From Selaginella moellendorffii (taxonomy: Eukaryota; Plantae; Lycopodiophyta): a DNA stretch of 7,343 nucleotides. The stretch's first letter is position 1, and each line of letters begins with the position of its first letter. Location: assembly GCF_000143415.4 (NCBI RefSeq), contig NW_003314467.1, forward strand, positions 1 to 7,343, in the 5' to 3' direction. This document shows, piece after piece, positions 2,426 through 7,343 of the stretch. Position numbers and translations under genes: made by a program. The notes below the pieces were generated by a model. That model was not told the DNA's origin. It was given only the letters and a program-made list of their open reading frames with translations, and searched no databases.

Positions 2426-2452
2426 TTCCAGCGGAGCTGGGATCCCTGCTAG
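2426..2452 (+). terminator. Helitron 3' terminal signal (hairpin + CTAG)
   Basis: TT-CCAGC-GGA-GCTGG-GA stem-loop (5 perfect bp, extended by a T.G and a T-A pair), then CTAG at 2449-2452 followed by T and a short TA run. Confidence 0.7.
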
Positions 2453-2462
2453 TATATATATA

Positions 2463-2629
2463 TGTGAGTGTTTGGAATAAGGAAAGGAAATACAGAAAAT
2501 GTGCATATCAATTAACAAAAAAACCTTAACTTATATACAGAAGTGAGTGGTCCGGATTGAAACAGCTACCAAAATCCCACTATGCTAATATTAGTATATG
2601 GCATTGTAGCCATACACTTGGCCCTCACA
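2463..2629 (-). repeat. 3' LTR (167 bp) of the minus-strand Ty3/Gypsy element
   Basis: Minus strand begins TGTGAGGG (2629) right after the polypurine tract and ends CACTCACA (2463): TG...CA ends with a 7/8 terminal inverted repeat. Internal TATATAA at 2537-2531 (-). Confidence 0.8.
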
Positions 2630-2644
2630 TCATCCCCTCCTCTC
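2630..2644 (-). promoter_or_regulatory. Polypurine tract (plus-strand primer site)
   Basis: Minus strand GAGAGGAGGGGATGA lies between the integrase stop (2662) and the LTR TG. Confidence 0.8.
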
Positions 2645-2661
2645 AGAATAATGGAAGACCA

Positions 2662-3760
2662 TCAAGGTTCTCTTATAGATAGGCCAGAATCGAGAGGAAT
2701 GTCAAGAGGAGGCATCAACGGATCTGTAGGTGGTATTAATTGCTCTTGATCCCTTGGTATAAAGCATTTCAGCCACTGCACATGCACAATCTCTAGAGGA
2801 TCGCCCTGTTGGATGTTATGCCGGACCTCATACACTTGTGGTCCAACTTGCCAAGTCATCCATTTTGTACTCTGTAGGTGGATGATGATGGGAGTTGTAG
2901 CACTGCTGTTGTCCTACTTGTACACAGCCTAAGTATTCTGCAGACTCCGCTTAGACCAGTGGAAGAATGCTCGTTAAATACTGATCCCACGACCTAGCAT
3001 TGGTAGCTCATGGAAATTGTGAAGGTAAACCCAACTCCGTTAGTAATATTGGATCATGACCATATAAAAGTTTATATGGTGAAGCACCAATAGAACTTTG
3101 CACCCTTGTGACATATGCATACTAAAAAGACGGCAGATAACCATCCCAATCTAAATGCTGAAAGTTCATGTACTTCGTGATCATCCCTTTGAACGTCTGA
3201 ACAAGTCGTTCCACCAAATCATTTGATTGTGAATGATAAGCACTCGTGAAAGTGTGGCATATCCCCAACCGAGACGTCAAAACATGAAGTGCCTCAGCCA
3301 TAAATGTGGGACTATTATCTGAAAGAATCCACTCTAGACAGGAATGCTGAAACACCACTTGATTGAGGAGGAAGTATCCAACAACAGTGGCAGAGGCGCT
3401 AGCAAGAGCATCAACTTCCACCCAATGAGTCATGTAGTCAGAAGCAATAATAACATACTCATTGCTAGTAGTCGATCGTGGAAAAGTTCCCATAAGATCA
3501 ATCGCCACCAACTCAAATAGACGGGAAACTACAATTGACTCCAACCATCCTTTTGCAGCATGAGAAGGAGTATTATGAGCTTGGCACTAAACGCAGCTAC
3601 GCATATACCAGATAACATCACGTCGCATCTTCAGCCAATAGAAAACCTATGCAGCTTCTCGGCCGCACGACAATGTTCCATATGCCCACCTAAAATAGGA
3701 GAATCATAGTAGGTATGGAGAAACCGTGGAATAAAGACAGAAGGCACCACTAGCTGTAAA
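2662..3760 (-). pseudogene. Gypsy integrase (zinc finger, DDE core, C-terminal part)
   Basis: LQLVVP...YYDSPILGGHM...YWLKMRRDV..Y.RSCV*CQ (degenerate HHCC); AIDLMGTFP...SDYMT.WVE...ILSDNS..F...SAYHSQSNDLVER (D,D,E retained); C-terminal QVGPQVYEV...VHVQWLK.F. The GPY region appears deleted near 2860. Confidence 0.95.
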
Positions 3761-4080
3761 GGATTATTAGAATCCGTCCCCACAAAATAAAGAAGGCCAT
3801 CTTCAAGGCGATACTAAAAATGTAAATGCCAAAATGGCAAGTCATCAGCAAGTGATGTAGGATTCTCAAACCCATCTCGAAGCCTTCGAATCCATAGCTC
3901 AAGCTTTTGAGCCTCGCAAACCTCATCAAGAGAAGGTAGATTTTGCTCTGCACCTTGTAAACACTAAATGTCAAATATAACAACCGTCGATGGCACAGAA
4001 TCCTTGTCTAGAAAATCCACAGACGCCGGAACAACAAACTCATCAAAAATATGAGAAAAGAGTGGAAAAGGAAGAGGAGC

Positions 4081-4650
4081 TCGAGAAAGGGCATCAGCAT
4101 CAACCATAAAACTCCCAAGGCGATGAATAACATTAAAATCATATATCTGAAGCTTCAAAGCTCACTAAGCAATATAACCAACTAGGTTCTTTTGCTTCAA
4201 TAATGAAGTAATGGCAGCATGCTCACCTTCAAGTAACGTCCAAAAACCATGTAGATATACATGAAGTTTTTCAAAACCCCAGACTACTGCTAAACACTCC
4301 TTCTCAGTCGTGGAGTAGTTCACCTCCGTATAAGCAACCAAAGAGAATAATTTAAACTACGATCCATGGGGTTCAAATATAAAGGGAAAAGACCAATGAA
4401 TAAGAGTGCACTCCCTTTTCCAATCGGTTAAGGGTCTTGGGATACTTGGGGTTAAGTGTCTTTGGGTTTGAATAATATTAGGTTGAGTGACCTCCCGGGA
4501 AATCCAAATTCAGGAGCTTACACTCTGCTGGTTGTAATGTATAACTTATATATGCAACGGGATAGCATTGACTAGGCACACTTAGGCTCTCTTGCATCAA
4601 CACACCTCCAAGACCAATATCAGAATCATCCACACACAAAATAAAAGGTT
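4081..4650 (-). pseudogene. Gypsy RNase H, interrupted by a solo LTR
   Basis: FILCVDDSDIGLGGVLMQ...YPVAYIS.TLQPAE|insertion|VNYSTTEKECLAVVWGFEKLHVYLHG...KLQIYDFNVIHRLG..MVDADALSR. Confidence 0.93.
4329..4522. mobile_element. Solo LTR (194 bp) nested in RNase H with a 5-bp target-site duplication
   Basis: Ends TATAAGC (TGTAAGC with G>A)...GCTTACA form a 7-bp inverted repeat. Flanks CTCCG (4324-4328) and CTCTG (4523-4527). Removing the insert plus one flank restores PAEVNYSTTEKE in frame. TATAAA at 4378-4383 hints at + orientation. Confidence 0.85.
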
Positions 4651-4919
4651 GAGTGTAGTCAGGATATGCCAAAACTAGAGGGGTTGTCAAGAGCTTTTGA
4701 TATCCACAAATGCCTACTCACAATCCGGAGACCAGATGAAAGATGATGTTGATGACTTCAGTAATGCTCGCAATGGTGCAATGCAATCAGAAAGATGATC
4801 CATAAAATGACCAAGATATTGCACCTTTCCCATGAAACATTGTACATCATTCACACACTTCAGAGTAGAGAACTTTAGAATAGCCATAAGTTTGTTAGGA
4901 TCAACTTGCAAACCCTTAT

Positions 4920-5460
4920 GAGAAATACAGTACCCAAGATAAGTCATGTCCTTGGACCCAAATATGCACTTCGACTGCTTCAGCTTTAAACCAACATCCC
5001 GTAGCTGATCCAACACTTTATAAACATCATGAACGTGCTCCTCCCACGTCCCCTCTGAGTGGATCAAGAAATCATTAATGAAGTCAGTAGTCACCTCTGG
5101 TATATTGTAAAGAACTTCGTCTATCATCCGGTAGAAAGTTGCTGGAGCATTGTTCAAACCAAACGGCATCACCAAGAACTCGTACAAACCAGACAGTGTA
5201 TAAAAAGCAATCTTAGGAATATCTTCTTTGGCCATCAGTATTTGCCAGTACCCAGAAGTAAGATCTAGCTTGGTGAACTAACGACTTCACCCCAGATAAT
5301 CCAAGAGATCAGCAATGTGAGGAAAAGGGTACACATCTGGGATCGTCACTTTGTTTAATGGATGATAGTAGATGTAGAAACGAATACTCCCATCATGCTT
5401 TATCACAAGATAAGTTCACATGCCCAAGGACTCTGCGACTTCTAAATAACACCCTTCTTC
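4920..5460 (-). pseudogene. Gypsy reverse transcriptase, inactivated
   Basis: KGVI*KSQSPW...DGSIRF....LNKVT.PD.YPFP.I.DLLD.LG...FTKLDLTSGYWQI...AF.T.SGLYEFLVMPFGL.NAPATF...FINDFLI...YLGY.IS. The catalytic (Y/F)xDD reads FIND at 5082-5071. Confidence 0.95.
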
Positions 5461-5629
5461 AACATCTCTTTGACGTTTGCACGTAAAATCTTGATCTCTT
5501 TGAGTGATCGACGATGAACAGAAACCTTGATTGGATGAGCATCCCCAGTTGGAATCGGATGACGTGTGGCAATTTTGGCCTTAGATGATAAGTCAAATTC
5601 AAAGAGACTAGAATACTCCTTCATGAGCC

Positions 5630-5965
5630 TCAAAGTCACACTTGGCATGATTGCACTGCAACCAATCCATACCAAGGATGAGGTTAAAAGCTTGACTTAG
5701 CACCACCCGCAATGACTACAACCCAAGCTCAAAATCACCCACACGTACAACCAAATCCACCTCATCTCATGCATATGCATGTGTATGGCTGTTGCCATAA
5801 AGAATGAAAACTGGTTCTACTACACGATGCAAATGTAGACGGCAATGTGTGGCAATAGGTCGAGCAATAGAAGATAAACTCAAACTTGTATCAACTAACA
5901 TAGAGAAAATAATAAGAAACCTCTTATTATAAAAACGAGTTTGGAAAGTAAATACTACATGAACT
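5630..5965 (-). pseudogene. Retropepsin aspartic protease, degenerate
   Basis: MLVDTSLSLSSI (D at 5892-5890; DTG>DTS) and downstream FNLILGMDWLQCNHAKCDF. Confidence 0.85.
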
Positions 5966-6333
5966 GGTGTTGAGTGAACCCCTTGATGATACTCCCAAAA
6001 GAAAGATGGAGGGGTCACTGACTTATTTGTGCAAGGTCCTTTTATTACTTATAATGGACTTCATCACGGGACTCCCCCTAAGTGAGGGGTTTGATGCGAT
6101 ATTTGTGGTGGTGGACCGATTTTCAAAGATGGCCTATTTCATACCCACTACAACAGAAGTGGATGTAGAAGATGTGGCGAAGTTGTTCTTTGAACAAATG
6201 GTTCGAATGTAGGGAAGGCTAGAAGAGATTATCTCAGATCGAGATAAGATCTTCATCAGTAGGTTCTGGAGAACTCTCCTGGAACAATATCACACTAAGT
6301 TGAAATTCAGCACAGCCTATCAGCCACAGACAG

Positions 6334-6380
6334 GTATTGAGTATTAAGTCAAGTTTGATGGCAGTAACACTTCTTGACAG
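6334..6380 (+). other. 47-nt GT-AG intron (phase 1) in the integrase core
   Basis: ACA G|GTATTG...GTAAC ACTTCTTGACAG|AC GGA CAA ACG GAA. Splicing gives T-D-G-Q-T-E with no residue gained or lost. Confidence 0.8.
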
Positions 6381-6798
6381 ACGGACAAACGGAAAGGGTG
6401 AATAGGCAGCTGGAGGATTATTTGTGATGTTATGTCTCGGGAGACCAGACCGATTGGGTAAATCATTTAGGACTTGTGGAAATATGCTATAACAACTCAC
6501 CACACTCGAGTATTAGGGTGAGTCCATGGGAAGTTATCAATGGGCGAGCTATTGAAGGTCCTGTGGAAATCGGTGTGGCCGAGTATCATGGAGAGTTACC
6601 TACAGCGGAGGCATTCACGGCGGAAAGACTCAACATTTGGAATCTAGTGAGGGATTCCTTGGAACAGGCTCAATAAAGGCAAACCAAGTATGTGAACTAG
6701 AAGTGCCGGGACGTAGAGTTCCAACTTGGGGAGAAAGTGTGGCTGGACATCAAGAACCTAAGACTAACAAGTGGGATCAGCCGAAAGTTGACCCAAAG

Positions 6799-6850
6799 GT
6801 AAAAATGCATGTATTCCTAGAAATGAATTGATCTTGAGTTTCTTAAGCAG
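6799..6850 (+). other. 52-nt GT-AG intron (phase 2) just before the GPY motif
   Basis: CAA AG|GTAAAA...TTTCTTAAGCAG|G TTT GTG GGG CCT TAC. Splicing gives KLTQRFVGPY exactly. AT-rich, in an AG|GT proto-splice context. Confidence 0.85.
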
Positions 6851-7031
6851 GTTTGTGGGGCCTTACAAGATTGAGGCACGAATCGGTAAAGTGGCTTACT
6901 ACTTCTGACTTCCTCGAGAGATGGGGAAGATGCACCTAGTGTTTCATGTGAACTTACTCAAGTCATACTTTGAAGATCTCCTTTGCAAGGACCAAGTGAG
7001 ACATTTACCTGAGGTTATTCAAGGGGAAGAG

Positions 7032-7193
7032 GAATATGAAGTTGAGGCCAACCTTAATGCATGCAAGAGCAAGTGACAAGGACATGAGATGAGGGAGTTC
7101 CATATGAAGTGAAAAGGATTTCCACATTGTGAAGCAATATGGGAATCGGAAGAGAACCTAGCGAATGCGCGAGATCTAGTGGAGGAATTTCTA
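7032..7193 (+). other. Chromodomain (group I-like) at the integrase C-terminus
   Basis: EYEVEANLNACKSK*QGHEMREFHMK*KGFPHCEAIWESEENLANARDLVEEFL matches EYEVE.I.......YLVKWKGY.....TWEPEENL.NA..LV.EF. Cage positions: Y (7035), W>stop (7110), F. Confidence 0.9.
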
Positions 7194-7343
7194 CAAGGCA
7201 AAACTCTATGTATTTATGCAAAGTTCAATTAAAGTATCAATTTGTGAGGTTGAGCAATGGCATATGTTGGGACCCGAAGGCACGTCAAAAGTAAGGTAAT
7301 TAGCATGGGTTAGCTAGGTCAACCAAGCGTAAAGAACTATGCC

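Follow-up and report, generated by a model that had tools for sequence, protein, structure and literature searches.

Retrotransposition is classically proved by introns being lost when an element passes through RNA, and the locus described here raises the question of how an integrase gene of chromovirus type can carry two inserts that look like spliceosomal introns. The gene lies at the 3′ end of the window, by which we mean the whole stretch of 7,343 nucleotides from Selaginella moellendorffii that was analysed. An earlier note, made from the letters of this stretch, had set out three alternatives and chosen none of them: (a) a chromovirus that reverse transcribes unspliced RNA and must splice to make integrase, (b) a DNA transposon derived from a chromovirus integrase, and (c) a domesticated integrase-chromodomain gene that later decayed.

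Layout of the copy and its surroundings

The element and its upstream flank can be divided into the following parts.

5760..6049, plus strand: candidate LTR piece of the intron-bearing family, a high-copy repeat with both ends cut and deep cover in DNA-type runs
6054..6333, plus strand: coding block A, core of the integrase (Pfam rve, E 2.4e-10), catalytic Asp codons at 6057 and 6237, one stop
6334..6380, plus strand: likely intron 1, 47 nt, GT..CAG, phase 1, read-through stop at 6345
6381..6798, plus strand: coding block B, catalytic Glu (codon 6392), remaining core and start of the SH3-like (GPY/F) domain, three stops
6799..6850, plus strand: likely intron 2, 52 nt, GT..CAG, phase 2, read-through stop at 6800, no spliced read
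6851..7232, plus strand: coding block C, GPY motif, SH3_Tf2-1 domain and chromodomain, three internal stops, terminal stop at 7230-7232
7233..7343, plus strand: 3′ non-coding part of the element, with depth up to the last bin and a loose end behind 7339

The succession of a D,D35E integrase core, a GPY/F (SH3-like) domain and a chromodomain is the order of chromoviruses (Ty3/gypsy). The Asp, Asp and Glu residues are those that we take, from established knowledge, to be the catalytic ones. Block C matches Pfam SH3_Tf2-1 (E 5.5e-12) and Chromo (E 3.3e-6), and the chromodomain, at about 7035-7193, also matches HP1-type chromodomains among structures. Blocks A, B and C contain one, three and three in-frame stops, respectively, seven in total, and the copy is therefore dead. 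It is also 5′-truncated, with everything upstream of about 6050 lost: the copy begins abruptly near this position, and at the loose ends before 6048-6054 the family contigs run into the usual integrase N-terminus (next 30 letters). On the other side, the family sequence extends beyond the window end at 7343. Run X1 has 340 difference places over 5800-7343, of which 315 are transitions, and CpG there stands at half of the expected level, a pattern as for a methylated, decaying repeat. A search for tandem repeats found none.

Upstream of the break, the family contigs diverge from the window sequence 5′ of 5760 and 3′ of 6027-6050, which leaves the repeat piece 5760-6049. Transcribed reads of runs X22 and X23 map there. 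A single X1 contig links position 7124 to 5918 in the same orientation, which places the repeat piece also 3′ of the chromodomain. In run X4 the depth of the piece is not clearly double that of the integrase. The piece may be part of the LTR of the intron-bearing family. An LTR start at the TGT of position 5790 was rejected, as the family contigs extend to 5760 and beyond.

The rest of the window holds other decayed sequences. A second decayed Ty3/gypsy element, at about 2450-5760 on the minus strand, comprises protease, RT, RNase H and integrase; no chromodomain match was obtained among the frames scanned, and its protease region is cut by the intron-bearing element. The RNase H region of this minus-strand element contains an insert of about 199 nt (about 4324-4522, minus strand), which starts with TGT, has short near-repeat flanks and is possibly a solo LTR or a miniature element. 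Two adjoining 25-nt copies, 84% alike, lie just outside the minus-strand element at 2273-2322. At the 5′ end of the window, an ARP5 gene fragment on the plus strand (14-415, with more pieces at 567-650 and 941-1042) contains a 55-nt intron at 14-68. The fragment is 77-84% alike to the ARP5 model and 97-100% alike to several hypothetical S. moellendorffii models; its frame 69-326 is 98-100% identical to six gene models of the species and 86% identical to the ARP5 model. It is likely a multi-copy captured gene piece.

The two inserts, in the family and in RNA

The earlier note had described the inserts at 6334-6380 and 6799-6850 as AT-rich, bounded by GT and CAG, and 47 and 52 nt long, neither length being a multiple of three. 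All of this proved correct, the GC content being 0.36 and 0.31 in the inserts versus 0.44, 0.47 and 0.42 in blocks A, B and C. Their excision yields PQT-D-GQTER at the first junction (phase 1) and KLTQ-R-FVGPY at the second (phase 2), as had been predicted. The further claim that they are the only frame breaks holds for frameshifts, but the blocks also contain the seven in-frame stops. As to the intron at 14-68, with which the inserts had been compared in size, it is real host-type sequence, but it sits in the multi-copy ARP5 fragment.

The insert lengths are fixed by homology, since related proteins run continuously with one residue at the junctions. Among 160 homologous proteins, from which only those reaching both sides of a junction were counted, exactly one residue (the split codon) stands at junction 1 in 102 of 102 and at junction 2 in 34 of 45. 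With junction 1 closed, 35 residues separate the second Asp from the Glu, the exact D-35-E spacing; such spacing is that of retroviral-type integrases. Insert 1 interrupts the DD35E triad, with both Asp before it and the Glu after it; the unspliced frame ends at 6345, four codons into the insert and before the Glu. The block B frame ends at 6800, and insert 2 cuts off most of the GPY/F domain together with the chromodomain.

When the inserts were shuffled, a GT start with an AG end appeared in 0.55% (insert 1) and 0.45% (insert 2) of cases, giving a joint chance bound of about 1 in 1,300 once the 6 and 5 equivalent cut positions are allowed for. In the family majority (about 97% of the depth of run X1) a branch-site-like word, CTAAC, occupies 6364-6368 of insert 1, 13 nt short of its 3′ end, and the host intron 14-68 has the same word similarly placed. 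Insert 2 is 51 nt long in one high-depth contig, owing to a 1-nt length variant at 6818; coding indels listed near 6898-6906, unlike this variant, cancel out. Short direct repeats flank each insert (5 nt, 6329-6380; 4 nt, 6797-6852). These repeats may record intron gain by repair insertion or by duplication of a proto-splice site; they are largely what the splice-site consensus produces and make no argument against introns. Insert 1 has GT-AG ends, the branch-site-like word and, in one read described below, exact removal from RNA, which are the marks of a spliceosomal intron. Both inserts are likely spliceosomal introns.

The inserts were then followed in the family. In run X1, 11,536 contigs fall on 5800-7343, and none of the 30 bins is without depth; by identity band they number 1302, 2786, 4806 and 2642, and these are contig counts, not copy numbers. 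The contigs with the region span identities from above 99% down to about 82%, and long contigs about 82% alike to the window run across the inserts, three of them (records 1-3) across insert 1 and two (records 4 and 5) across insert 2. No precise skip of either insert occurs among the X1 joints listed (15 of 30, the weakest with a depth of 139). Runs X4 and X5, from one sample of unlabelled library kind, gave 48 and 114 contigs and no joint at all; their deep contigs (depth 41-59) pass through both inserts. Contigs drop rare variants, so that rare intron-less copies could escape. Among the difference rows listed, the family depth has another letter at at least five of the seven stops of the window copy; these stops are therefore private decay of this copy. 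Both inserts belong to a high-copy family and not to the window copy alone. The refuting condition named in the earlier note, inserts unique to this copy and no spliced read in the family, was not borne out: the inserts are shared with high-depth and with diverged contigs, and one RNA read skips insert 1.

Evidence from RNA was sought in three runs chosen by species label, of each of which about 12% was examined. Six, four and two raw reads fell on the element, 12 in all. As joints were reported from at least three reads only, single reads were deduced by solving the depth tables. All six reads of run X21 could be accounted for in this way, and one skips exactly the 47 nt of insert 1. The sole solution over two binnings is 6288-6328 joined to 6376-6483 (149 letters), a skip that corresponds to the leftmost equivalent cut of the insert. 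In the difference tables this read appears at 6323 and 6430 but not at 6340 or 6364. No other raw read falls on junction 1, and this one could derive from a rare intron-less copy rather than from splicing. For insert 2, no skip was seen among the 12 raw reads of the three runs. Three raw reads extend about 20 nt from block B into insert 2, unspliced; they may be antisense or DNA, because their first mates lie on the strand opposite to that of the spliced pair's. The contigs of run X20, which is RNA by guess only, keep both inserts. The junction reads proposed in the earlier note were thus found for insert 1, as one read, and not for insert 2.

Identity and proposed working of the element

Protein searches retrieved no relative above 47% identity, the closest being P0024. 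RT was present in all eight of the homologs longer than 1,000 amino acids among the 18 scanned. A quick search covering 40 of 42 full-length homologs, with no labelled references, gave no placement in Galadriel from a tree. A family pattern scan for the same intron position returned no match, looser patterns returned 5 viral and 6 metagenome matches, all 11 without an integrase match, and none of the 20 candidates from a protein scan of viral contigs could be confirmed.

In its layout the window element matches a published element of the same species. SM1-Galahad is an LTR retrotransposon of 7.5 kb whose copies number in the hundreds, are about 95% alike and in many cases have suffered large deletions (Novikov, Smyshlyaev and Novikova 2012; PMC3350952). 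It has LTRs of over 1 kb, a tRNA-Met PBS, a PPT and an internal region of 5,278 bp. Its main ORF of 3,885 bp encodes Gag, protease, RT, RNase H and core integrase, without a chromodomain, and two further ORFs, of 316 and 309 bp, come after it. The second of these is reported as 113 amino acids with a group I chromodomain, two figures that are mutually inconsistent. The available text of that paper states that no intact copy and no target-site duplication were found; it reports three ORFs, and the words "intron" and "splic" do not occur in it (PMC3350952).

Block C reproduces both figures: 309 bp from the first ATG (6921-7229) and 113 amino acids from an upstream GTG, this GTG start being our choice. 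Block B gives 318 bp from 6482, a start codon in the family contigs, versus the 316 bp published. In the window the frame ends inside the integrase (stop at 6345) and two short ORFs follow, which is the layout of SM1-Galahad. The high copy number of the family and the deletion in the window copy agree with the hundreds of copies, many with large deletions, of the published element. If the 3,885-bp ORF ends in insert 1, the predicted spliced frame has 1,557 codons, versus 1,577 in the sister family SM2-Galahad, and the predicted genomic span of 4,770 bp is compatible with the internal region of 5,278 bp. By this match of lengths, and not of sequence, the window element is likely SM1-Galahad, and it would then carry gag, PR, RT, RNase H and LTRs upstream. 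Alternative (a) is favoured because the layout matches that of a published element with gag, PR, RT, RNase H, LTRs, PBS and PPT.

We therefore consider it rather probable that the window holds a dead, 5′-truncated copy of a chromovirus, likely SM1-Galahad, with two likely spliceosomal introns that are family-wide, the unspliced RNA serving as genome and the spliced RNA giving rise to a working integrase. The unspliced RNA would encode Gag-PR-RT-RNase H and a catalytically dead integrase stub without the Glu. Removal of intron 1 would complete the integrase active site, and removal of intron 2 would add the GPY/F domain and the chromodomain, so that the fully spliced RNA would encode a whole polyprotein of about 1,557 codons. 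If daughters are to inherit both introns, the RNA that is reverse transcribed must be unspliced, and splicing is likely partial. Most of the packaged RNA would be unspliced, and a spliced minority would supply integrase; in an element with one fused gag-pol frame, partial splicing may thereby set the integrase dose. The spliced RNA would retain all packaging and priming signals, and intron-free daughters should therefore arise. None was seen in the family contigs, from which rare variants drop out. That a fully packageable spliced RNA has not taken over speaks against splicing-gated integration. More tentatively, and as a proposal that we hold about as open to doubt as to belief, if not slightly more so, SM1-Galahad gained two integrase introns, one within the catalytic triad, and spread via RNA to hundreds of copies, with host splicing gating integration and unspliced RNA packaged preferentially.

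The same observations were weighed against other explanations. SM1-Galahad might spread without an integrase of its own: the inserts would have arisen in a master copy, their splicing would be incidental, and integrase would come in trans from SM2-Galahad or another chromovirus. SM2-Galahad, with hundreds of copies and one open frame, would be a suitable source, no intact SM1 copy having been found (in the available text of PMC3350952), and insert 2 was not seen spliced in the RNA reads. On the other hand, two GT..AG inserts are unlikely without selection for splicing (about 1 in 1,300), the family depth is free of five of the seven stops (in the rows listed), and insert 1 has both the branch-site-like word and one spliced read. 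We regard supply in trans as unlikely.

A little more doubtful still is a Ginger-like cut-and-paste DNA transposon, derived from a chromovirus integrase with its chromodomain, that would keep its introns since it does not pass through RNA. Ginger1 transposases do have a GPY/F domain and 1 to 4 introns (PMC2836005), no intron-less joint occurs among those listed, and the RT and LTRs of the element were not seen directly. Against this, the length fingerprint points to a published element with gag, RT and LTRs, and the upstream repeat piece recurs 3′ of the chromodomain on the same strand in one contig, as direct repeats would. Furthermore, Ginger1 ends in OTU or Ulp1, and GingerRoot is described without GPY and chromodomain (PMC2836005, PMC6839031, in the parts available).

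It is improbable that a resident LTR copy gained the introns and then multiplied as DNA, by tandem or segmental duplication or by carriage in a DNA transposon. Such a history would accord with the lack of an intact copy or target-site duplication in the published description of SM1-Galahad (PMC3350952, available text) and with the other multi-copy captured DNA in the window, the ARP5 fragment; it fits poorly with a region carried by contigs from above 99% to about 82% identity and with a window copy that lies inside the protease gene of another element, as a dispersed insertion would.

Repair fillers are often bounded by short direct repeats, as each insert is (5 and 4 nt), but we give hardly any credence to intron-mimicking filler DNA in the window copy, or to a domesticated single gene later decayed, as the inserts occur in the family majority, at very high copy number and with one spliced read; alternative (c) is incompatible with a family of thousands of contigs, the window copy itself having seven stops.

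Comparison with known systems

The family has probably been described already; its introns, in the literature searched, have not. We found no report of introns inside the integrase of an LTR retrotransposon in the literature searched; Repbase, subscription journals, the large REXdb files and the figures of PMC3350952 lay outside this scope and may bear on novelty. The available parts of PMC12130899 and PMC2442089 contain nothing on the window element. A 2025 review, in its available part, gives Ogre, EVADE and BARE1-type elements as the only intron cases among plant LTR elements, none of them inside integrase (PMC12786077). A family that keeps two host-sized introns would be a natural test case for asking how an LTR element chooses its RNA for packaging, if the ratio of Gag to integrase can be governed by partial splicing, and how introns are gained, with SM2-Galahad as intron-free control. 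It would also weaken a rule of thumb by which a Gypsy-type integrase with introns is assigned to a DNA transposon or a domesticated gene, and would re-annotate SM1-Galahad, whose chromodomain was thought to occupy a separate ORF.

SM1-Galahad and the window element share the species, a very high copy number, large deletions, a main frame ending in integrase, two short frames after it and a group I chromodomain with a changed chromo box. They differ in that SM1-Galahad was published as three ORFs, whereas the gaps are read here as two GT-AG introns (PMC3350952). Its sister family SM2-Galahad is likewise Galadriel-like and runs from gag to chromodomain in 1,577 codons, against the 1,557 predicted here, but it does so in one uninterrupted ORF (PMC3350952) and so has no such introns; the intron gain would therefore be later than the split between SM1 and SM2. 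SM-Tcn1, which also has a chromodomain integrase and comes from S. moellendorffii, was considered as the identity of the element and rejected: its pol frame is continuous and its integrase sequence, compared by eye, is clearly different, which makes it another family (PMC2864245).

Ginger1 resembles the window element in its Gypsy-type integrase, GPY/F domain and GT-AG introns. It differs in having terminal inverted repeats of 40-270 bp, a 4-bp target duplication and no RT, and in its C-terminal OTU or Ulp1, where block C ends in a chromodomain (PMC2836005, available part). Inverted repeats of this type are not present within the window, the ends of the element lying outside it. GingerRoot, which also has a Gypsy-type integrase and is present in Selaginella, is described with terminal inverted repeats and without RT, GPY motif or chromodomain (PMC6839031, available part), whereas the window element has both GPY motif and chromodomain.

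Among LTR elements with known splicing, EVADE, other Ty1/Copia elements and BARE1 have spliced and unspliced RNAs side by side, the unspliced one being the genome (PMC5580714, PMC12786077), and Ty1/Copia elements set an excess of Gag through splicing (PMC5580714). In these elements, however, splicing yields a short message for Gag, and all enzymes are encoded by the unspliced RNA (PMC5580714, PMC12786077); for the integrase of the window element the proposed logic is the reverse. Ogre is, like the window element, a Ty3/gypsy plant LTR element with a partly spliced intron, the removal of which is needed for the downstream enzymes. Ogre has a single such intron, which lies between protease and RT in a region averaging 274 bp (PMC6317226, PMC4408406), whereas the window element has two host-sized likely introns inside the integrase, one of them splitting the catalytic triad.
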